Both the position numbers and the translations under genes were made by a program. The notes under the pieces are model-generated. The model had not been told where the DNA came from. It ran no database searches and saw only the letters and a program-made list of their open reading frames with translations. Positions 48,491 to 64,000 of a stretch of 64,000 nucleotides of DNA are shown piece after piece. Within the stretch, counting starts at the first letter, position 1. Every line of letters starts with the position of its first letter. The DNA lies in the NCBI GenBank assembly GCA_051439605.1, contig JBFRWN010000098.1, positions 51,189-115,188 on the forward strand, written 5' to 3'. The DNA is from Synechococcus sp. (GTDB taxonomy: Bacteria > Cyanobacteriota > Cyanobacteriia > Thermostichales > PCC-7336).

Positions 48491-48976
48491 ACATTTATCA
48501 AGAGCTCTGCTTATCTATATTAGCCAGTTCAGTGACCCAGCATTTTGTACCGACTTCGGGTGCCATCTGGAAAAGACGAATCGTAGATGTCGAGTACGAC
48601 TTGCCGAGCAGCCCTCTCAGAACAAACGAATAGAACGAAGCGATCGCGATTTCAAATTAATGGGCTACTTTTGCGCAACCCAAGTCAAGCAAAAGGGAAT
48701 AGAAAAATTGCGTGGCTAAATTTGCAGCCCTCACAGAGCTAAATGTCTTAAGTACGGGTTCATCCCCCAGATTGGGGGTGCCCGTTCAGCCCACGATGGC
48801 AAAAGGACTGTCAGCTATTTGAGTCATGCGTGAATAACTTACGTGTTTTTACCGCCCACAAGAACATAAAACCAGTAAGAACACGATAAAATATTAGACC
48901 AATGGTTCAAAAGGTTACAGACTATAAGCTCTAAATATTGTTTAATAAGCCATGGTTGTTAAACCCTTGCGACATC

Positions 48977-50011
48977 ATGGCCAATCCAACTGCTCCTTTG
49001 AGTGAGAATCGAGCTGCCAGAGCCCAGTATCTGGTATCGGTTATTATACCTGCCTACAACGTCGCAGAGTATCTAACAGAGGCAATAGAGTCTGCCCTCA
49101 ATCAGTCACACGATAATGTCGAGGTGATTATTGTTGATGACTGTTCGCAAGATGCCACCTTAGAACTGGCGCAAGCTTTTGCAAAGGTGGATTCTCGGGT
49201 AAAAGTCATTGCCAACCCCGTGAACCAAGGGGCTGCAGTAGCGCGCAACTTAGCCTTAGATGCCGCCTCTGGTGACTGGATTGCGATTTTCGATTCCGAT
49301 GATTGGCTGTCTCCAGAACGATTTGATTTTTTACTGCAGAAGGCCGAAGAAAGTTCCGCTGATATGATGGCGGATGATTTCGGCTACGTGAATGACGGCG
49401 ATCGTCAACCTTGGACGACGTTTGTCAAGCGCAACGGTGATGTGTACAGCAAAGGGCTGACTCAAATTGATAAGGTGTTCTACGTTGACTCGAAGAATTG
49501 GACCGTGAGTCCTGGCATCTTAAAGCCTCTGGTGCGTCGAGCTTTTATTGAAGAACATGGCATCCGCTACAAAGATGAACTTCTCTTGGGCGAAGACTTC
49601 TTCTTCTACCTCGATTGCCTAATTCACGGGGCACGTTTTTTCGTCTATCCAGAGGTTCACTACTATTATCGCGTTCGCCCTGGTTCAGTAACCAATTCTA
49701 GTAGTGTCAAGCACGCAAAATTTCGAATCAAAGGACTGAAAGATGTTTTGGGATACAAGCAACTGGCGGATGAACCTGAACTTCATCATGCGTTGCTGAA
49801 AAAACTCGACGGCTTCAACAAGTACCTCCTGACAGCATCGGTGAGAGAACTACTAGGTAAAAAACACTACCTAACAGCAACCGCAAAGGCAGTAAGGAAT
49901 CCCCACTTCTTTGTTTGGTTGTTCGAGCACATCAAAAAAAAGCTGATAGTTAGGGCTCATAGAATCGCTAGCAAAATAACTGAACAAAGTTCATATATTT
50001 CCTGTTCGTAA
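48977..50011 (+). CDS. Family 2 glycosyltransferase
   Basis: VSVIIPAYN, VDDCSQD, ARN, FDSDD, GED, YYYR. Confidence 0.92.
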   Translation: MANPTAPLSENRAARAQYLVSVIIPAYNVAEYLTEAIESALNQSHDNVEVIIVDDCSQDATLELAQAFAKVDSRVKVIANPVNQGAAVARNLALDAASGDWIAIFDSDDWLSPERFDFLLQKAEESSADMMADDFGYVNDGDRQPWTTFVKRNGDVYSKGLTQIDKVFYVDSKNWTVSPGILKPLVRRAFIEEHGIRYKDELLLGEDFFFYLDCLIHGARFFVYPEVHYYYRVRPGSVTNSSSVKHAKFRIKGLKDVLGYKQLADEPELHHALLKKLDGFNKYLLTASVRELLGKKHYLTATAKAVRNPHFFVWLFEHIKKKLIVRAHRIASKITEQSSYISCS

Positions 50012-50373
50012 TTCTCATCTCTATAGCAATTTGCTACCTTAATAGCTTGGCTAGTATTTAGCTAATTTCACTGACATTCAATTGGGGGGGGGTCAATAAG
50101 TTAGATAGAATTATAGATTGGCTAATAGCTTGCGTCACTGGTCAATAAAAACTTGAATCAGCAGTTTTGAATGCCCACATATAAAATATTTCTTCCCAAT
50201 CCAACCTTATCCAAATTGAACCAAAGGGTTTGACATTAGCTGTTTACCAATTGAACTCCCTATATTAGTTAATACTAACTCGACAACGATCTTTAGTATT
50301 TTTATACGTAGTTTCAAGCACAGTAAAAAAAAGAATGCTATTATGTTGACGTAGGAAATTTTAATTAATAACT

Positions 50374-51171
50374 ATGGAGATGCTAAAAGGTAATTACGAG
50401 CGAGATGGTTTTGTTGGACCGATACGCGCCTTAGATAGCAACTCAACGAGTTTGTTATTGGACGAACTGAAGGAAAAGGTATTTGAACAGAAAGGCGTAG
50501 CGTTCATTCGCAACAGACACTTAGATATTGATTCAGTCAAGCTCCTCTGTCAATCTGAGGTTATTCATGATGCTGTTAGTGAAATCCTCGGAACGAATTT
50601 AGTTTTATGGAGAACCAATTTTTTTGCGGTGAAATCGGGGCAAGGTCATGGGTGGCACCAAGATCGATATATAGGACTTCTTGACGATACTTCCAAGCAA
50701 GTTTCGGTCCATTTAGCATTAACCAAATCTTCTCCAGATAATTGCCTAAAAATCATTCAAGGGTCTCATCAATGGTCAGAGTCTGAATTAGAAAGGAATG
50801 GACTTTTCAAAAAATCGGAAAAAAGTGCATACGGAACTTTTCAATACCAAAGAGATCCTGACAAAAAAGTCAATATAGTACCTATTTTGCTTCAGCCAGG
50901 TGAATTTATTGTTTTTCATCCTAACCTCATTCATGCTCCGAACGATTTCCCCCTCAAAAAATCTATCAAACGTAAGGCTTTCAGTGCGATTGGACGAGCG
51001 AAAAAATTTCTAATGAAAAAATCAAGGCAAAAAGCGAACAATTCTACAGCTCGACTAGCTTTCGGAATGAGGATTACAACATCAGATAACAAAGTCTATC
51101 CAAAAGCATTTCAACAAACATTACCGAGAGTCGATAAATGCGTTCCACTCAGACCGCTTGCCAAAATCTAG
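50374..51171 (+). CDS. PhyH-family Fe(II)/2OG dioxygenase
   Basis: WHQD (HxD), GSH, LIHA (distal His), RLAFGMR. Confidence 0.82.
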   Translation: MEMLKGNYERDGFVGPIRALDSNSTSLLLDELKEKVFEQKGVAFIRNRHLDIDSVKLLCQSEVIHDAVSEILGTNLVLWRTNFFAVKSGQGHGWHQDRYIGLLDDTSKQVSVHLALTKSSPDNCLKIIQGSHQWSESELERNGLFKKSEKSAYGTFQYQRDPDKKVNIVPILLQPGEFIVFHPNLIHAPNDFPLKKSIKRKAFSAIGRAKKFLMKKSRQKANNSTARLAFGMRITTSDNKVYPKAFQQTLPRVDKCVPLRPLAKI

Positions 51172-51428
51172 TTGAATAGCTTTCAAGGCATGTCAATACG
51201 ACTCAATCTCTCGTTGAGTCATTATTTTGTATCTTTGAATTCACAACTAGTTTATTAAGCAAGTGTGCTTAACATTAAATTAATTGGGATAAATCGTGAT
51301 TCATCCCAATTTTTATTTGATTTGATGCCAGCCACTTTATTCCCAGCATGGAAAAGCTTGATTTAGCGGAGCCTTTTCAAATATTCTGAAGAGCCTGTGC
51401 TAGTAGAGTGAGATGACGTCAAGATTTA

Positions 51429-52265
51429 CTATGAAAAGTATTGAACCAGTCGGTTTAGAATATGATTTAGGTAAATATTTTTTCTAAACAATGAAAGAGG
51501 GGGATTGGTTAGGATATTTTCCCCGTAAGTATCTTCGCCTTGCACAATTATGCAATTCAATCGACGATTGAGTTCACTATAAAATACTTTATTTTGTGGT
51601 CTTGTATAGCGAGCGAGCAAAATCAATTGTTTGGCACCCGAACTATCTGGTTTGATGCCATTCCATAGACCTCCTTTGATAAGGTAGTATTGACATTTTT
51701 GCATCTGAAGGTGAACAACTTGATGGGGTGCATTCTCAGGATGTAAGCGATCTGCTAACATCTGCATCGAATGGTTATCATACAGATCGATGTTTCCTAA
51801 TTTCTCTTGTTCAATCAAATATTTTTTAGATTCAGCATATTTATGAGTTTTGGGAATAACCTGTATGCAACCTTTGTCGGTATCCATATCCTTCATAGCT
51901 ACAGATAGTTGAACACCAGCCACATCTTTATTGACTTGATCGATATTCCACTGCTGCCCAGACTTTCCAAACGACTTAATTCGACCGTACCATAACAGCA
52001 GATCGTCCCCCAAAAGCTTAGAGATTGAATCTATGGCGGAAGGATCGGTGGCAACATCGTAAATCAACCTGCACTTCGTGTGACTTTCTAGGTTAAGCAC
52101 AAGTTTTTGAGTCTTGACATTCAACACTTTTTTAGGGTTTTGTATAGATTGAAGCAAAGCCATCAGAGGAGACATATCTTCTAGCGAATATGGCCCAGAG
52201 TAACCATTTTCCTCAAAGAACCTTTGCTGTTCCTTTCCCAATCTCAATTGCGGTTGAGCAGTCAT
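51429..52265 (-). CDS. PhyH-fold protein lacking both iron-binding His (putative pseudoenzyme)
   Basis: Aligns with the neighbour 52568-53449 but has WNID and LWNG in place of WHID and LWHG. Confidence 0.75.
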   Translation of the reverse strand: MTAQPQLRLGKEQQRFFEENGYSGPYSLEDMSPLMALLQSIQNPKKVLNVKTQKLVLNLESHTKCRLIYDVATDPSAIDSISKLLGDDLLLWYGRIKSFGKSGQQWNIDQVNKDVAGVQLSVAMKDMDTDKGCIQVIPKTHKYAESKKYLIEQEKLGNIDLYDNHSMQMLADRLHPENAPHQVVHLQMQKCQYYLIKGGLWNGIKPDSSGAKQLILLARYTRPQNKVFYSELNRRLNCIIVQGEDTYGENILTNPPLSLFRKNIYLNHILNRLVQYFS

Positions 52266-52567
52266 CAGTTTAATCTCCTCAGGTTAGTTTGGCGATATTG
52301 CTGCTCGCCCATACACGCTAGGTAACACTGCATCCCTCAAGTTTGCCATCTGATTGACACAACTCTGTAGATTCGGTTGTTACCACACAACCCCTCTTGA
52401 AGGATTATCTTTCACGAATACCCATTTGAAGTCTGAGACACAAATGGATTCATACATATCCTCGATTCATACAAGAGCTTCAAGATAACAGCTCGAGCAA
52501 CTGATTGAGCTACTTGAGCTATTACCTGCAAAGATGTAGCTTGCTTGGGGGGTCTCAATTAACCAAA

Positions 52568-53449
52568 CTATTTACTCATTTTTCTTAGCAAATAGTTTAT
52601 CCAATAGTTCAATCCAATAAAGTTCCTTAATAAGCCACTGGGAGGTTGATAGATATCGTTAGGGTTATCTGAGTTTTCACCACTCACTAAAACACAAGGC
52701 AAAGTCTTAGCATCATACCAACTTACATTGGTACCGTCTTTATCTGTCCGCATGTAGCGAGCCACCATAGCTGAACGCACTGTATTACTTTTGTTAAGGG
52801 ACACGCCATGCCAAAGACCGCCTTTAGTGAAAAAATATTGGTTAGGCTTTGTTTCAACGGGTACAACTGGGTGCGGAGCATTATTTGGAAAAAGTTTATC
52901 TGCAAGGTCGGCAACACTTTGAGAATCGCTAAGATCGACCATTCCTTTGCGAGCAAAATCATTTAGATCGTCGTTAGTTATTCCATACTTGTGCGATCCA
53001 GGAATTACCTTCAAACACCCATTTATCTGGTTCATATCAGTCAGAGCAATAGTGGCGTGAACGCCATCAACCTCGTAGTTATCCTGATCGATATGCCACT
53101 CCTGTCCAGGATTTCCGGGAGGTCTGTTGATAACGTGCTCCGTCCAGACGAACAGATCGGGTCCCAACATTAAATTGAGCTTATTGATAATGTCTGGAGT
53201 ACTGGCTTGTTCGAATAGCATGCGGGAATATACGTGCAAGTCTCGCTTTGTATTGTGAAGCTTAGTCGATTTATTGAAAAAAGGAGAACGCCAAGCAGAC
53301 ATGATTTTGCCTGTCATGGATGTGTCGCTAAGCGTAAAAGGACCAACATATCCGTACTTGTCAAAAAAGTCTAAGAAATCATTCTGATTTTCAGGGCGAT
53401 CGTCGGTTGAGGAAATAGTAGATACCATCTTGTTTTGACTGTAGAACAA
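52568..53449 (-). CDS. PhyH-family Fe(II)/2OG dioxygenase
   Basis: GYVGPF, WHID, NGCLKVIPGSH, LWHG, R.AMVARY, CVLVSGE. Confidence 0.85.
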   Translation of the reverse strand: MFYSQNKMVSTISSTDDRPENQNDFLDFFDKYGYVGPFTLSDTSMTGKIMSAWRSPFFNKSTKLHNTKRDLHVYSRMLFEQASTPDIINKLNLMLGPDLFVWTEHVINRPPGNPGQEWHIDQDNYEVDGVHATIALTDMNQINGCLKVIPGSHKYGITNDDLNDFARKGMVDLSDSQSVADLADKLFPNNAPHPVVPVETKPNQYFFTKGGLWHGVSLNKSNTVRSAMVARYMRTDKDGTNVSWYDAKTLPCVLVSGENSDNPNDIYQPPSGLLRNFIGLNYWINYLLRKMSK

Positions 53450-53551
53450 CTCTAGGAATGGAAAGGTTGAAATTAGTTCATTGGATCTAGTCCAAATTTG
53501 AAATAACTTCCTGCAAAAATAGTGGAGAGAGGTTATGACAGTGCCTGTATT

Positions 53552-54361
53552 TTACTGCAAAGAAACCGATTTAAAAGGTAGTTCTGATTGCTGATATTTC
53601 AGGGATCCACTCAATAATATAGCCTTACATTGTTCGTAAGAAGACTGTCCTCTTTTTAGTAGATCTAAAGGGAGCTCAATGTCATGGTAAAGTTTTGTCT
53701 TTTTAAGAACACCCGACTTAATATTGGCTGACGAATCTCCAACAGTAAGCTTCCCAGTATTATTGAAACTTGAGTACTCTTTACTAAGGGGAACTTTGAG
53801 ATCGAGCCAGTCTGTCAAGTTCTTCAATAGAAGATCGGTCTTGTCAACAAGATCTTCTGAATCAACGAAAAAATATCCACTGCCAATCTTCTTTGCAAAC
53901 TCTTCCAAGCGTAACAGCCTAGAACAATAATAATCTGTGGCGCTTTCGGGGTCTTTAAACTCATTCCAATCTATACGATTGGCTAGTGCGATAATACTCT
54001 TAATCGTGCTTTCGGCATCTCTCAAAAGAAATAAAATCTTTGGTTTCGCAATCTTAATTACGTTGTCTGAAACATCAAAGCGGTTATGAAGCAACTTATC
54101 TAACAAATATTTTCCATCAAGTTTACATTCCAAATCTCTATACAATTGACACCGCATGTCAAAGAGATCTTTACGACTTAAATAAGTTCTATGTAATTCG
54201 CTGTAACCGCATATATTTGGATTGCTTCCGAGTACATGAGAGAACACCGAAGACCTAGCTCTCATATGACTAATAATAAATAAATACTTAGTTTGACAAG
54301 TAATAAGGTGTGGATGAGAAGAAATTAAAGCTAACTTTTTTGCTTTTCTCGCAATCGACAT
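53552..54361 (-). CDS. PAPS-dependent sulfotransferase-like protein
   Basis: HMRARSSVFSHVLGSNP.I.GYSE (5'-PSB-like), LLRD..STIKS (3'-PB-like), EDLV. Confidence 0.72.
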   Translation of the reverse strand: MSIARKAKKLALISSHPHLITCQTKYLFIISHMRARSSVFSHVLGSNPNICGYSELHRTYLSRKDLFDMRCQLYRDLECKLDGKYLLDKLLHNRFDVSDNVIKIAKPKILFLLRDAESTIKSIIALANRIDWNEFKDPESATDYYCSRLLRLEEFAKKIGSGYFFVDSEDLVDKTDLLLKNLTDWLDLKVPLSKEYSSFNNTGKLTVGDSSANIKSGVLKKTKLYHDIELPLDLLKRGQSSYEQCKAILLSGSLKYQQSELPFKSVSLQ

Positions 54362-54803
54362 TAGTGCATTTCCATAGAGGACACAATGTTAACGACCTAA
54401 CCAGCACCTGGCCAAAGGAAAACCCTCAAGAGAAGTATAGAATCACGCCATACTTAGAGGCTTGCAGTTCCTAGCTAGATATTAGGAGGAACAGAGTTGA
54501 ATTAGTCGATACTTCCACTCTATTGACGAAAACCCACTGACCCTCAGGACAGTAAAAGAGCTTTGTACCTAAGTGTATAGCACAACCCCCACAAGCAGTT
54601 GCTACATGGTATACCAAGTTTTACACCAAGTTCTGCGAACACTTATTGGATTTTGAACAATCATGAAAGACAACCAATGTCTCTAGCTGGCTAGCATTGG
54701 ATACTTATCCTAGAGGCAGCATGATAGCCTTTCTGAATACGATGCGTTCATTGCTTCTGACTTTGATAAAACCAGCGCCTCCAGAGTGAAGTAGGCATCT
54801 CAT

Positions 54804-55127
54804 CTATTCGTCTGCAGAGGGTTGAGATGACTCCTGGCGGGACTGTTGCCAGATGAGATAGGCAGCTAAAGACATCGTGCAGTTTCCAAGCAGGGTCATG
54901 CTTGCTTGCACAGTTACAATCCATTCCAGTACTGGGGGATTATCGAAAAAGTGCCAGGTCAACGCCGACATCGCCCCCACTAAAGCCGGTAGCATCCCCC
55001 AGGATAGATAGCGCCATGCAGGGAACGAGATGACCTCGGAGTAGCGCCACACCAGGAAAATTGCCGCAATCCATTCCACAACACTGGCGATGTGAATGAA
55101 CCAAGTAGGGAGTGATAAAGCGTTCAC
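54804..55127 (-). CDS. Ycf49-like (DUF2499) membrane protein
   Basis: ALSLPTWFIHIASVVEW, TWHFFDN, QASMTLLGN. Confidence 0.85.
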   Translation of the reverse strand: MNALSLPTWFIHIASVVEWIAAIFLVWRYSEVISFPAWRYLSWGMLPALVGAMSALTWHFFDNPPVLEWIVTVQASMTLLGNCTMSLAAYLIWQQSRQESSQPSADE

Positions 55128-55163
55128 AGAGTCTGGCTCGATAATCGTTTTCAGTGTATCTCT

Positions 55164-56417
55164 CTAAGCAGCCTGTAAAGACAGAGCGGCGAACGGTTGG
55201 AACAGCTCGAAATCCGTGCTGTGAATTGCCTGCTTTCCTAGACCAACAGAAACATGCATGCTGCAAGCCTGGGGGTCGAAAACCACGCTGTGTAACGTGC
55301 CCTGGTTATTGACCACTCCTGGAGTATGCCAGGCATCGCGTTCGCCCAACGGATACTCCGGTGTAATTTCGCGGTCGGTCATCGCTGCAATGATATCTGG
55401 CACCGACAGCGCTGATTGACTTGCTTGACTCCACTGGAACAGACGACTGTAGCGAGATTGAGAACCAGGGGCAGTGACCCGGTGGTAAAGATCTGTATGG
55501 GTTTCAGCCAAGTCAGGGTCGAGAAAATGATTGCTCATCGCCATCGGCCCCTCGCCAAGATGGGTAATACGATGGCGAGCACTGGTAAATTCGAGCCGTG
55601 CGGCGGAGCAAGCATCCGCCAACATCAAGTTATTCCCTTGGGCCGGAACATTCTTCTCAAACTGGGCGATCGCGTCAGCAACTGTAGACGCGCGATCGAG
55701 CATTAGGCGATATAGGAAGGAGCATCCCAAACCATTCCAGTTTTGCTCGGAACTTTGAGAAGTCATCGACCCCAAGCTGAGGCCGTGGTGATTCATACCG
55801 GTGAGGACACCCACCTGTCCGGCAACTGTGACGCTGGCGGTGGCAGGCGCGTTATCTGGCTGCCGTACCACGATCGCCTGAAAGTGCCGAACTAAATCCC
55901 CCACTTCACCGTTGTAGTCTAAGTTGCGCCCCATCAAGGCGCGATTTCCTCCCCCCCTGGCACTCACCGTTGAGCAGGAGTAAGCCAATCCCAGCTCCAG
56001 CAAGTTGAGGATGTCATCAAAAAAATTAATCAGCAGCACGGAGGAGAGTGGAATTCCGGCCCCATCTGCAATCCCCTGCAGCTCCGCCTGGTACCGCATC
56101 GGTACCGCCTTGAACAGGTGAAACAGGCGACTAGGAGCAATGTAGTTGTAAAACAGGCTGGCTGGCCCTTGGGCAAATTGCTCGAAAAAGCCCGCCGTCA
56201 GAGCCTGAATTTCCCGTTGGAGGATGCGTCCCTGTTGATATCCTATGGTGTAATCAGACCCACGCAGATAAAGCACCGGTAGCTCCCAACGCTTTGACTG
56301 CAGGCGATCGACTCTGGCTAAATCTTCACCCGTTTCTGACATCGAGAAAGAGGGTAGTTTGGGAGGAGACGCCGATGGCGATCGCACAATATTCCATAGG
56401 ATGGGCCACACAGCCAT
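55164..56417 (-). CDS. C45-family Ntn hydrolase/acyltransferase
   Basis: ELQGIADG, CST nucleophile, GRNLDY, GMNHHGL, SNHF, SRY.RL. Confidence 0.82.
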   Translation of the reverse strand: MAVWPILWNIVRSPSASPPKLPSFSMSETGEDLARVDRLQSKRWELPVLYLRGSDYTIGYQQGRILQREIQALTAGFFEQFAQGPASLFYNYIAPSRLFHLFKAVPMRYQAELQGIADGAGIPLSSVLLINFFDDILNLLELGLAYSCSTVSARGGGNRALMGRNLDYNGEVGDLVRHFQAIVVRQPDNAPATASVTVAGQVGVLTGMNHHGLSLGSMTSQSSEQNWNGLGCSFLYRLMLDRASTVADAIAQFEKNVPAQGNNLMLADACSAARLEFTSARHRITHLGEGPMAMSNHFLDPDLAETHTDLYHRVTAPGSQSRYSRLFQWSQASQSALSVPDIIAAMTDREITPEYPLGERDAWHTPGVVNNQGTLHSVVFDPQACSMHVSVGLGKQAIHSTDFELFQPFAALSLQAA

Positions 56418-60661: not shown

Positions 60662-61660
60662 GTGGAAGCGATGATTCCCAAGTTCTACATTCAACCCGAT
60701 AGCGACATTCCCGCATCTCAACAGCTAGCGGGTCAAATTGGTTTTGCAATCGCATCGAAGCAAGTTCTACCGGGCAGCCGCTTGCCCAGCACTCGACAGC
60801 TGGCAATGCAAACGGGCTTGCACCGCAATACCATCACCCGCGTCTACGCTCAGCTGGAAGCAGATGGGTTGATCGAGGCACGAGCAGGCTCGGGAATGTA
60901 TGTGCGCGAGGGGGGAGTCCATGGCTCTGCTGGAGCGAATCTGGAAGGAGATGGCGATCGTTGGACCGAGGCGCGGGGGACCGTGCGCAAGGCGATTGAT
61001 GGATTGAGTCAGTTGGGGTATTCGCTGGCTCAGATTCGCTCGTTGATGGCGGAGGCGATTGATTGGCGGGAACAGTGCGGGGCGCAGGCGATTGTCACAG
61101 TGCCGCTGGAGCAGGAGGGGGTGGGGCGGCTGCTAGAGTTCGAGCTGATGCAAGAGTTGGGGCTGGCGGTGCAGGCCATTGCGCTGGAGAACCTTCCTCC
61201 GGTGTTGGAGGAGAATCCGTCGGTGACGCTGCTGACAACTCGCTATTACTTGCAGGCGGTTGAGACGGTGGCGGCAAAGTATCGAGCCAGGGTGATTCCG
61301 ATTGATGTGAATGCGTACGAGCGGGAGTTGGAGGCGATCGCGGCACTCAGCCCTCACAGTTGCGTAGGGATGGTGTCGATTAGCCCGGAAGTACTGCAGG
61401 TGGCGAAGGTGGTTCTGACCAGTCTGCATGGGGACAGCTTGCTCGTGCTGTCGGCAACTCCAGATGATGGCATGCAGTTGAAGACGGTGGTGCGGCGGTC
61501 GGAGTTGATTGTGTGCGGGCGATCGAGTGTGGAGGTGGTGCAGGGGGTCGTGCGGGAGATGCGATCGCAGTTGATTCGCTTTCCAAAAATCCTGGTTTCA
61601 GATAGCTACATCAGCCAGGATTCGTTGTCGGTACTTGCTCGGGCTCTGGACTTAGATTGA
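60662..61660 (+). CDS. GntR-family regulator, cyanobacterial PlmA type
   Basis: F.IQPDSDIPASQQL...LPSTRQLAMQTGLHRNT...AGSG.YV. Confidence 0.85.
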   Translation: MEAMIPKFYIQPDSDIPASQQLAGQIGFAIASKQVLPGSRLPSTRQLAMQTGLHRNTITRVYAQLEADGLIEARAGSGMYVREGGVHGSAGANLEGDGDRWTEARGTVRKAIDGLSQLGYSLAQIRSLMAEAIDWREQCGAQAIVTVPLEQEGVGRLLEFELMQELGLAVQAIALENLPPVLEENPSVTLLTTRYYLQAVETVAAKYRARVIPIDVNAYERELEAIAALSPHSCVGMVSISPEVLQVAKVVLTSLHGDSLLVLSATPDDGMQLKTVVRRSELIVCGRSSVEVVQGVVREMRSQLIRFPKILVSDSYISQDSLSVLARALDLD

Positions 61661-61927: not shown

Positions 61928-62154
61928 TGGTTGAAATATTCCAATCAATTTGGGCTGAAAGTTTATTTGGGTATTTTTGCCAGAACCAGAATTTGATGGG
62001 TTGATGTCCAGAGAAAATTCCTGAAATTTCGGGTTTATCCGACATATCGGAGGTGATATACAGAAATTAGTTTGGGATATAAATCTCTACATCGGGGTGA
62101 TGCCGAATCATTCGTGGTATTTACTCAAAATCAGTGTCTTATGCCGCAAGTTCC

Positions 62155-62174
62155 GTCTAAGTAAATAGTTGGTA
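62155..62174 (+). other. Candidate attI site
   Basis: Inverse-core-like GTCTAAG, 6-nt A/T spacer, then GTT (62168); about 240 bp upstream of the intI start. Confidence 0.5.
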
Positions 62175-62326
62175 TTTCATATGAAGGTGTTATACGGCCT
62201 GGAGATGTATAAAATGATCGACAAGCGTGTTATGCGGCCCTAAGACATATATCGCCGCAGAAAGGGGCACTATACGACTTGGAGCCCTTGAATAGTAGTT
62301 ATACCTAATTACCAAGGAAAGCAGAA

Positions 62327-63871
62327 TTGAACAATCCAAAGCTTTTTATATCCTATAGTTGGTCAAATCACGATCACGAGCAACTTGTGCTTCAGATAGC
62401 TACGGAACTGACTGAATCAGGCGTAGATGTAATTTTACTGAAGTTTTGACTATTTCAAAAAATACGCTACTAGTAGCGTCCCAATGTTAAAGTCAGCCAC
62501 TGCATATAGCGTCAAGTTTTATTTTGTTAAATCTCCAGAATTTTAGATAAATGGGATTTAAAAGAAGGACACGATGCCTATACATTCATGGAGAAGATGG
62601 TCAATGACCCTGAAATAGAAAAAGTGGCGATATTTTCAGATAAAACTTACACAAAAAAAGCAGACGGTAGAAGTGGAGGCGTAGGTACAGAAACACAAAT
62701 AATCTCTCGCGAAGTATATGAAAAGCAGGAGCAAGACAAGTTCGTTGTGGTTGTAACCGAAAGGGATGAGAGCGGAAAGGCTTATCTTCCTACATACTAT
62801 AAGTCGAGGATATATATAGATTTAAGTGAGCCTGACTCTTATGCAGATAATTTTGAGAAGCTATTAAGGTGGATATACAACAAACCACTTTACGTAAAAC
62901 CAGAAGTCGGCAAAAAACCTAGCTTTCTAGAAGAAAGCGAAACCGTATCGCTTGGTACCTCCTCAGCATTCAAAAGAGCTATAGATTCGATTAAGAATAA
63001 TAAATCTACAGCGTCAGGCTGCTTCGAGGAATACTTAAGCCTATTTTCAGAAAACCTAGAGCGTTTTCGAGTGCATGATGTGGAAGGTGAAATTGATGAT
63101 GCAATCACCGATAATATCGAAGCATTTATTCCAGCAAGAAATGAATATATTCAGCTAATTATTGCAGTTTCTCAATACAAACCAGTACCAGAATTTGCAG
63201 AAAGAATTCATCGATTTATCGAAAGCCTCATACCATATATGGAAAGGCCAGAACATATAACGTCCTATAATCGTTGGGAGTTCGATAACTACAAGTTTAT
63301 TGTTCACGAGCTGTTTTTATACACTCTCGCTGTATTTTTGAGATATGAGCATTTCGAAATGGCTTCTCCCCTTCTAATGCAGCAATATTTTGTCTCAGGT
63401 AGATCAGAGTATTGTAGGGATACAATGATCGGCTTTGAAAACATTCGGCAATACATGAAATCACTCGAGCATAGGAATAAACGCTTAGAAAAACGAAGGT
63501 TATCGCTTAGAGCTGATTTGCTAAAGGAACGCTGCCACGGAACAGGTATTGATTTTAGGTTTTTGATGCAGGCGGATTTCATTGCTTTTATGCGCGCGGA
63601 GATTTCTGCAAGCGATGGCTCCAGAAAATGGCGGCCTGAGACCCTTCTTTATCTTGGTGATTACGGGAGTTCTTTTGAAATTTTTGCTAGGGCAAAATCT
63701 AAAAAATACTTTGATCGAGTTAAAATTTTGTTGGGTATAGATTCTCCTACCGACCTTACTGAGATTTTGGAGTCCTATCAGCAAGACCGCAGAAGGCTTC
63801 CACACTGGGATTTTAACTCATTTAGCCCTTCTGCGTTATTGGGCTATGAAAGTTTAGCTACTTTGCCGTAA
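62327..63871 (+). pseudogene. TIR/SEFIR-domain protein (probable anti-phage cassette gene) interrupted by a MITE
   Basis: TTG start after AAGGA; MNNPKLFISYSWS..H...VL..A..L..SGVDVIL | DKWDLKEGHD..FMEKMV...KADGRSGGVGTETQIIS; removing 108 bp restores a 478-aa frame. Confidence 0.85.
62438..62538. mobile_element. 101-bp MITE with a 7-bp target-site duplication
   Basis: AATTTTA at 62431-62437 and 62539-62545; ends CTGAAGTTTTGAC vs reverse-complemented CTGGAGATTTAAC (10/13); internal palindrome ACGCTACTAGTAGCGT. Confidence 0.88.
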
Positions 63872-63879
63872 ACGGCATA

Positions 63880-64000
63880 ATCGGGATAGGGAGAATCCTC
63901 ACGAATCCCCCCTCCCACACCACCTGGCATGCGGGTCCGCACCAGGCGGTTCAGCATCACGGAGCAAACATTAATTTGACACCATCAAACGTATCCCTGG
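63880..64000 (-). mobile_element. 3' end (domains V-VI) of a class C group II intron, continuing beyond the window
   Basis: Minus strand reads GAACCGCCTGGTGCGGACCCGCATGCCAGGTGGTGTGGGAGG (short DV with CGC triad), then a DVI stem ending CCCTATCCCGAT. Confidence 0.9.

Follow-up and report, generated by a model that had tools for sequence, protein, structure and literature searches.

A group IIC-attC intron behind a bSEFIR gene, in the attC of its cassette, within a probable small integrase-less array of a cyanobacterium

The stretch of 64,000 nucleotides from a Synechococcus sp. contig that was analysed here (the window) breaks off within what looks like the tail of a group II intron, immediately after half of an integron recombination site. 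The question raised by this locus is whether the intron entered the attC site of the preceding cassette in the manner of the group IIC-attC introns and, if so, where the other half of that site lies. The evidence is set out below for the reading that we hold with considerable confidence, namely that a full-length and recently spread retroelement of the group IIC-attC kind occupies the attC of a bSEFIR cassette, within a small chromosomal array of the integrase-less (CALIN) type in a cyanobacterium.

The intron end and the cassette that it abuts

Contig C98 terminates together with the window, and the intron body, expected to measure about 1.93 kb in full from the lengths of its relatives, is absent from the assembly. 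What is present lies on the minus strand, where the Rfam model RF00029, covering domains V and VI (DV and DVI), matches from 63951 to 63880 with 41.9 bits against a gathering score of 40. The features at this edge are:

63880..64000, minus strand: 3' end of the group IIC-attC intron, reaching the contig end (RF00029)
63919..63950, minus strand: domain V, 32 nt, with CGC at 63948-63946 and a two-base AU bulge (fold)
63882..63917, minus strand: domain VI, with the bulged A at 63887 as candidate branch point (fold and Rfam alignment)
63985..63999, minus strand: last codons and stop of the RT/maturase, QGYV-stop (same C-terminus in the intact 465-aa protein of relative L132)
63875..63879, plus strand: left part of the attC R'' box, GCATA, with base 63879 as IBS3, T on the bottom strand (sequence)

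The features of a group II intron are present in DV, in DVI, whose bulged A stands eight bases before the intron end in the fold, and in an AY 3' end, and none of 200 shuffled sequences folded as stably as the DV/DVI region (z -4.65). A short DV with a CGC triad is a mark of class C. The final 46 bases of the window carry the stop and last codons of the intron protein. The sequence-only reading of this DNA had set the terminal AT of the minus-strand intron against GGCATA on the top strand, and this is what is found, with AT at 63881-63880 abutting GGCATA at 63874-63879, 8 bases past the TAA of the upstream ORF; its placement of the feature from 63872 needs correction, as the intron boundary is 63880. 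Its assignment to class C agrees with the 32-nt DV carrying CGC at its base and with the RT/maturases of the relatives, which fall in class C, and the orientation antisense to the cassette is borne out by RF00029 on the minus strand and the cassette ORF on the plus strand. GCATA fits the relaxed motif RYNYA, which by chance precedes about 3.5% of the positions in the cassette region.

To the left of the intron the following features were recognized:

62327..63871, plus strand: cassette gene of the bSEFIR anti-phage defence family (PADLOC)
62438..62538, no strand assigned: 101-bp MITE-like insert (CTGAAG...CTCCAG), lying between 62431-62437 and 62539-62545, the two copies of a 7-bp target duplication (AATTTTA)
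62298..62304, plus strand: R'-like GTTATAC, putative start of the bSEFIR cassette, 6/7 complementary to the R'' of the cassette
62030..62297, plus strand: array leader, in which several motifs resemble R' and short hairpins of weak stability occur (sequence and fold)
60662..61660, plus strand: GntR-family regulator gene, chromosomal left flank and synteny anchor (Pfam GntR)

Defence genes in cassettes are known, according to the available portions of two preprints. The two pieces of the present gene match bSEFIR in PADLOC with E values of 2.4e-91 and 4.2e-16, and 3649 homologues were retrieved, the best being 80-87% identical and nearly all of the 120 listed having about 478 aa. The gene is interrupted after codon 37 by the 101-bp insert, which brings an in-frame stop, and the frame counted from 62315 stops after 44 codons. 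The same element occurs elsewhere in the genome, in an identical copy on C17 (216050-216152) that lacks a target duplication and in two copies of 74-75% identity on C51 (15434-15532 and 15940-16037), which form part of a tandem repeat preceding a short ORF.

Upstream of the bSEFIR cassette, no intact attC was detected in the leader either by the attC covariance model described below or by folding. The leader stretch 62169-62251 shows 75% likeness to sequence that precedes the array on C16, and clusters of short R''/R'-like inverted repeats occur at window 62030-62297, at C96 27150-27430, upstream of intI on C88 and at C16 39850-40050. These clusters at array heads or on the side of intI are possibly attI-like sites or collapsed cassettes.

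The GntR-family gene, which we take to be PlmA-like, has orthologues in the same-genus genomes G004-G006 (65-79%). The spot beside it carries different insertions in the genome under study, in G004 and in G006, which suggests an integration hot spot; in G006 (L033, 381-629 and 4647-5636), a second copy of the gene's 3' quarter lies 4 kb downstream, and a protease-like gene separates the two. Further to the left, window 48938-56417 holds a cluster of a glycosyltransferase, three PhyH-family dioxygenases, a sulfotransferase and an acyltransferase-family gene.

The far side of the insertion

With the complete 1937-nt copy of the intron from the closed same-genus genome G004 as query, four intron 5' ends were found in the genome, at the ends of contigs C77, C104, C111 and C132, differing by 0-1 base per 120. 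Each begins GUACG, and a search with a GUGYG-type pattern had missed the true end for this reason; the GUGYG-like 5' end that had been predicted gives way to GUACG, the sequence that also opens the attC introns fetched from class 1 integrons. Each 5' end is followed by an attC remainder which starts with ACAA (three) or ACAC (one) and ends in GTTRRRY after 54-92 bases. The prediction that the sequence past the far end resumes with AC(AA) is thereby supported, as all four remainders start with AC and that of C77 with ACAAGG. IBS1 reads TTGT at C77, C104 and C111 and GTGT at C132. A second, identical intron 3' end of 123 bases stands at the end of C96 after the R'' half ACCTA.

Gene order suggests which of the 5' ends belongs to the window. 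In G005, a DUF559 gene and dapL come after the GntR gene at a distance of no more than about 100 bases, all contiguous, while in the present genome DUF559 and dapL lie on C77 (3045-4848), approximately 3 kb from its start, and the GntR gene lies 2.3 kb from the end of C98. C77 opens with an intron 5' end in the orientation that fits C98. These observations point to C77 as the far side of the intron of the window, whose 5' end would occupy C77 bases 1-120; gene order backs this assignment in one of three same-genus genomes, G004 and G006 having other neighbours. The remainder assigned to the window's site is:

C77 121-187: putative attC remainder (AC..., 67 nt to GTTAGAC; gene order, sequence and fold)

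Joined across the intron, C98 and C77 would restore an attC of 72 nt, whose fold (z -3.2 relative to base shuffles) shows an R box, a spacer, an L box and three extrahelical bases. The claim of an insertion in the attC R'' box is upheld by GCATA at the window end together with the far side assigned to C77 by gene order, and the proposed bottom-strand target TTGT/T corresponds to the GCATA/ACAA restored with C77, a link made through the gene order of one relative. A covariance model for attC, R1 (81 positions, 12 pairs), built on cyanobacterial sites of about 80 nt, returned 9 attC sites genome-wide with 150 of 879 candidates scored; it gave no match to the C77 121-187 remainder, which belongs to a shorter site, or to that of C104, nor any within the window. 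No intron-free or insert-free joint was seen in the contigs of four runs of one study, and contigs cannot show absence.

Between the GntR gene and DUF559, the block that is absent from G005 has a low GC content (0.39-0.40 versus 0.57-0.59 in the flanks). Its order is the bSEFIR cassette followed, on C77, by a 164-aa ORF, a degenerate attC-like site at about 808-898, a 162-aa ORF, a methyltransferase and a further, weak attC-like site at about 2606-2680 (16.4 bits at C77 2612-2680). No intI is found on C98 or C77; elsewhere in the genome, C88 carries an apparently intact intI, C7 one that the start of the contig truncates, and C61 a fragment. Given the link between C98 and C77, the array fits a CALIN, with a minimum of two attC sites and no intI nearby. 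Other arrays away from intI in this genome include six attC matches on the 5.8-kb C111, three on C129 and two on C16, and a further array lies on C25. Remnants of two other group II introns are located at C86 2557-2634 and C13 30317-31036.

Relatives, protein class and rival readings

Across the cyanobacterial class, the 120-base 5' end was matched in 61 of 401 genomes and 45 of 169 genera, a count for which at most two candidates were scored per genome and in which kin are not independent and weak matches may include other class C introns. Among 55 loci fetched where the contig leaves room, 5' junctions were called in 51, and IBS1 is NNGT in 46 of these, 32 of which read TTGT. All 28 3' junctions called in relatives end in A, equivalent to an IBS3 of T. 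Loci with the strict 5' motif start with AC and have GTT 67-84 nt further on in 31 of 34 cases (shuffled mean 0.49). Full pairing between IBS1 and the putative EBS1 is seen in 20 of 27 relative rows (one row is spurious), and in G004 an EBS1 of ACCA faces an IBS1 of TGGT. Forms of about 700 nt that lack the ORF occur in four genomes (L124, L130, L137 and L148 in G703, G562, G593 and G478); they keep both ends and domains I-III, comprise two sequence types and sit each in a different attC. A scan for the exact pattern found one locus in a collection of genome contigs, on a fragment of a planctomycete MAG, and none in metagenome contigs.

Some observations concern the cassettes next to the introns of relatives. 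In G004 (L016, L018 and L019), cassettes of about 180 bp without an ORF are repeated, three of four intron 3' ends follow such a cassette, and EBS1 of the G004 intron (ACCA) matches the attC of this cassette (TGGT). A module of LuxR, DJ-1 and DUF6220 genes (G004 L018 5498-9450; G508 L096/L170) is an ordinary locus in most relatives and ends in an attC in G508 and G004, with attC halves that differ between the two; in G004, a GNAT gene without a start comes next. The GCAAA junction of G004 had been considered an intermediate in the new formation of a cassette from gene, intron and attC, a proposal that was dropped because the 80%-identical G508 gene ends in GCATAAC plus attC, which makes GCAAA a mutated R''. 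By eye, no such attC was seen in the other 18 of the 19 homologue loci.

No part of the intron's own protein was found in the genome assembly, the shortest contig of which has 3130 bases, so that a collapsed repeat of 1.9 kb would have dropped out. RT matches on C88 and C56 were rejected as the intron's protein, being only 22-24% identical to the protein of a relative. The protein evidence comes from relatives whose RNA ends share 90-93% identity with those found here. Among them L117, which scores best at either end (90.5% at the 5' and 92.6% at the 3' end), encodes a protein of 445 aa with RVT_1 and GIIM domains and without an endonuclease, and the intact 465-aa protein of L132, with the same domains and equally endonuclease-less, ends in QGYV as does the window. 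The protein of the G004 intron passes TIGR04416 and, as a proxy, has its best PDB match in the GsI-IIC RT with 346 bits versus 123 for LtrA.

The phylogeny that the sequence-only reading had proposed as a check was run on these proxies (35 rows, leaving out matches under 200 aa, the duplicates L067 and L094 and the broken L054), with plasmid introns in integron attC sites standing in for the named references S.ma.I2, N.e.I1 and G.s.I1. It came out in favour of the attC branch (99/99), which unites 11 cyanobacterial proteins, one from Methylocalor and five class 1 integron attC proteins, the cyanobacterial rows having been labelled attC before the junctions were checked, among them L090 (G506), which has no attC remainder, and L075, where the junction is damaged. 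The RT motif of the cyanobacterial lineage is YMDD (10), YVDD (8) or YIDD (1) in all 19 motifs called, and YADD in all other rows. In a tree of the RNA ends, with 9 of 69 candidate rows, the window intron itself groups with attC introns (97/97). The C-attC subgroup named at the outset is thus sustained by proxies and RNA ends that group with attC introns and by junctions in R''.

How far do other readings account for the same data? Chance proximity to an attC of a IIB intron, or of a class C intron of the ordinary terminator-targeting type, would have to be considered in so far as both kinds exist and IIB introns have been reported in cassette arrays (PMC7923331, in the parts available). This is most improbable, as all six intron junctions of the genome fall at the same R'' base, the terminator-type class C introns start with GUGCG and stand outside the attC branch (L044, L052, L057 and L058, which follow terminators), and the CL1/IIB1 case UHB.I2 is co-oriented with the cassettes in the accessible text of PMC7923331. 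A different partner for the window's 3' end is a rather less remote reading, though still improbable: the end may pair with another 5' end (C132, C104, C111 or one that is unassembled), for example through recombination between copies, in which case the insertion would still be in an attC but the downstream array would differ. Four 5' ends face only two assembled 3' ends, and the C132 remainder folds better with the R'' of the window, being complementary to GCATAAC at 7/7 positions (z -5.15). However, since it is the following cassette of a linear array that supplies R', a match to the R'' of the window is not required, which left the pairing of junctions by R''/R' complementarity uninformative. 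The gene order of G005 favours C77, and in run X1 another cassette ends in GGCATA before the intron (a loose end at 63874), an extra junction that may be the partner of C132.

The state of the window copy is the point on which an alternative deserves more weight, although we consider it unlikely. The intron could be of the same kind but have lost its independent mobility, either as a dead copy (frameshifted or interrupted by an IS) or through an internal deletion. G004 has four intron 3' ends 83-84% alike to that of the window; its sole complete copy is frameshifted and five other pieces are truncated, several by IS-like sequence; both ends lie 1.5-2.3 kb apart in only 17 of the 55 relative loci, many of which stop at contig ends, and the ORF-less forms occur in four genomes. 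Against this, the ends are identical or nearly so among the copies of the genome, the 3' end in the window retains the last codons of the protein, unlike the ORF-less forms, an 809-base contig in run X2 that begins at this 3' end exceeds the form of about 700 nt, and the drop-out expected of a collapsed 1.9-kb repeat suffices for the missing body. With respect to copy number, the depth of the intron-end contig in run X1, which may be the source sample, is 318.5 versus 25.8 for the flank and 49-55 for the two-copy insert, and the ratio of intron end to flank is about 6, 5 and 2 in X2-X4; as depth is not a copy number, this only hints that the copies exceed four. A full-length group IIC-attC element in the bSEFIR attC stays our preferred reading.

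Mechanism, effect on the cassette and known systems

In the mechanism proposed, the intron would be transcribed from the strand opposite the cassettes and spliced with the help of its endonuclease-less RT/maturase, whereupon the RNP would reverse-splice into the single-stranded bottom strand of attC at a replication fork. The target would be recognized through the hairpin, TTGT (by EBS1 ACAA) and T (by EBS3), with cDNA synthesis primed by the nascent DNA. Recognition of a hairpin plus short pairing and priming at the replication fork have been described for class C and IIC-attC introns (PMC4424553 and PMC7923331, parts available). For this genome, the scheme builds on the observed position, orientation, both junction types and four near-identical copies, and for the relatives on target consensus, EBS1 pairing and protein class, while splicing, hairpin recognition and fork priming are taken over by analogy from the literature on S.ma.I2-type introns. 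For mobility into attC, the occurrence of near-identical copies at different attC sites is indirect evidence.

Lying antisense and past the stop codon, the intron would not have to be removed from the cassette mRNA by splicing. It may interrupt read-through and provide a weak promoter directed outward: a candidate, TTGCCC-N18-TATCGT, lies at 91-120 from the 5' end and resembles entries in Table 3 of PMC3001079, while a consensus scan for a P1out-like promoter returned none. The sequence-only reading had expected the insertion to block excision of the cassette. The filled site keeps the L box, the bulged bases and R', and in the fold the pairing of the conserved AAC falls from about 0.8 to 0.26, 0.25 and 0. 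Recombination by IntI at the filled attC is thus likely to be reduced according to this model, and the intron may weaken the site but not abolish recombination. With a weakened attC, the bSEFIR cassette and the next cassette would tend to move together or not at all.

A more far-reaching proposal, which we regard as doubtful, is that of an undescribed and currently active cyanobacterial IIC-attC branch with a changed RT motif (YMDD/YVDD) and many attC sites per genome, in which recombination between copies swaps attC halves, since every copy lands on the same R'' base, and so reshuffles integrase-less arrays without IntI. The sole hint of such swapping is the DUF6220 cassette of G004, which across the intron has an attC half of the ORF-less-repeat type, the same cassette in G508 having a different attC. 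If true, the swapping of attC halves would be a way in which cassettes are naturally remodelled or made.

A modest value lies in the host range, as the lineage is common in this cyanobacterial class and multi-copy. Cyanobacteria thereby provide a large natural sample in which to examine the still open proposal that these introns help to build or remodel integron cassettes, and the lineage is a source of class C reverse transcriptases whose motif differs from YADD and could be tested. A search of mostly open-access literature returned no paper on IIC-attC introns of cyanobacteria or on a YMDD motif among class C introns, and the text consulted described no test of how such an intron affects cassette excision; cyanobacterial members may be listed in supplements or in the intron database.

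The array resembles the CALIN elements, as far as the available text of Cury et al. 2016 (PMC4889954) describes them, in its attC-like sites (at least two), its low-GC cassette genes and an intI located elsewhere, and differs in that most of the attC sites are degenerate and the intron splits the array over two contigs. The terminator-targeting IIC introns (B.h.I1, O.i. and GsI-IIC; PMC4424553, parts available) share the short DV, the 4-nt IBS1 after a hairpin and the lack of an endonuclease, but follow intrinsic terminators and fall outside the attC branch, although the GsI-IIC RT is the best solved relative of the G004 proxy protein. The closest likeness is with the group IIC-attC introns S.ma.I2, E.c.I7, Kl.pn.I1, N.e.I1, G.s.I1 and Sh.ba.I2 which, in the accessible parts of Leon et al. 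2010 (PMC3001079) and Sonbol and Siam 2021 (PMC7923331), insert into the bottom strand of R'' at TTGT/T opposite to the cassettes, occur in integrase-less arrays and encode an endonuclease-less RT/maturase, observed here in the relatives. Such introns are described there as few and mostly proteobacterial; the present genome holds at least four copies, its host is a cyanobacterium, Table 3 of PMC3001079 lists none, and the word cyanobacterium is absent from the parts of both papers at hand. That the host is cyanobacterial is borne out by its photosystem II reaction-centre genes, which score above the family cut-off here and in just one of 14 control genomes. Only a weak outward promoter candidate is present here, P1out in domain I being common but not universal among IIC-attC introns, and the lineage carries YMDD, YVDD or YIDD in contrast to the YADD of the other rows. 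The intron of the window is a further IIC-attC intron. The integron-borne class 1 copies share GUACG with the intron 5' ends of this genome and one branch of the protein tree with its relatives.
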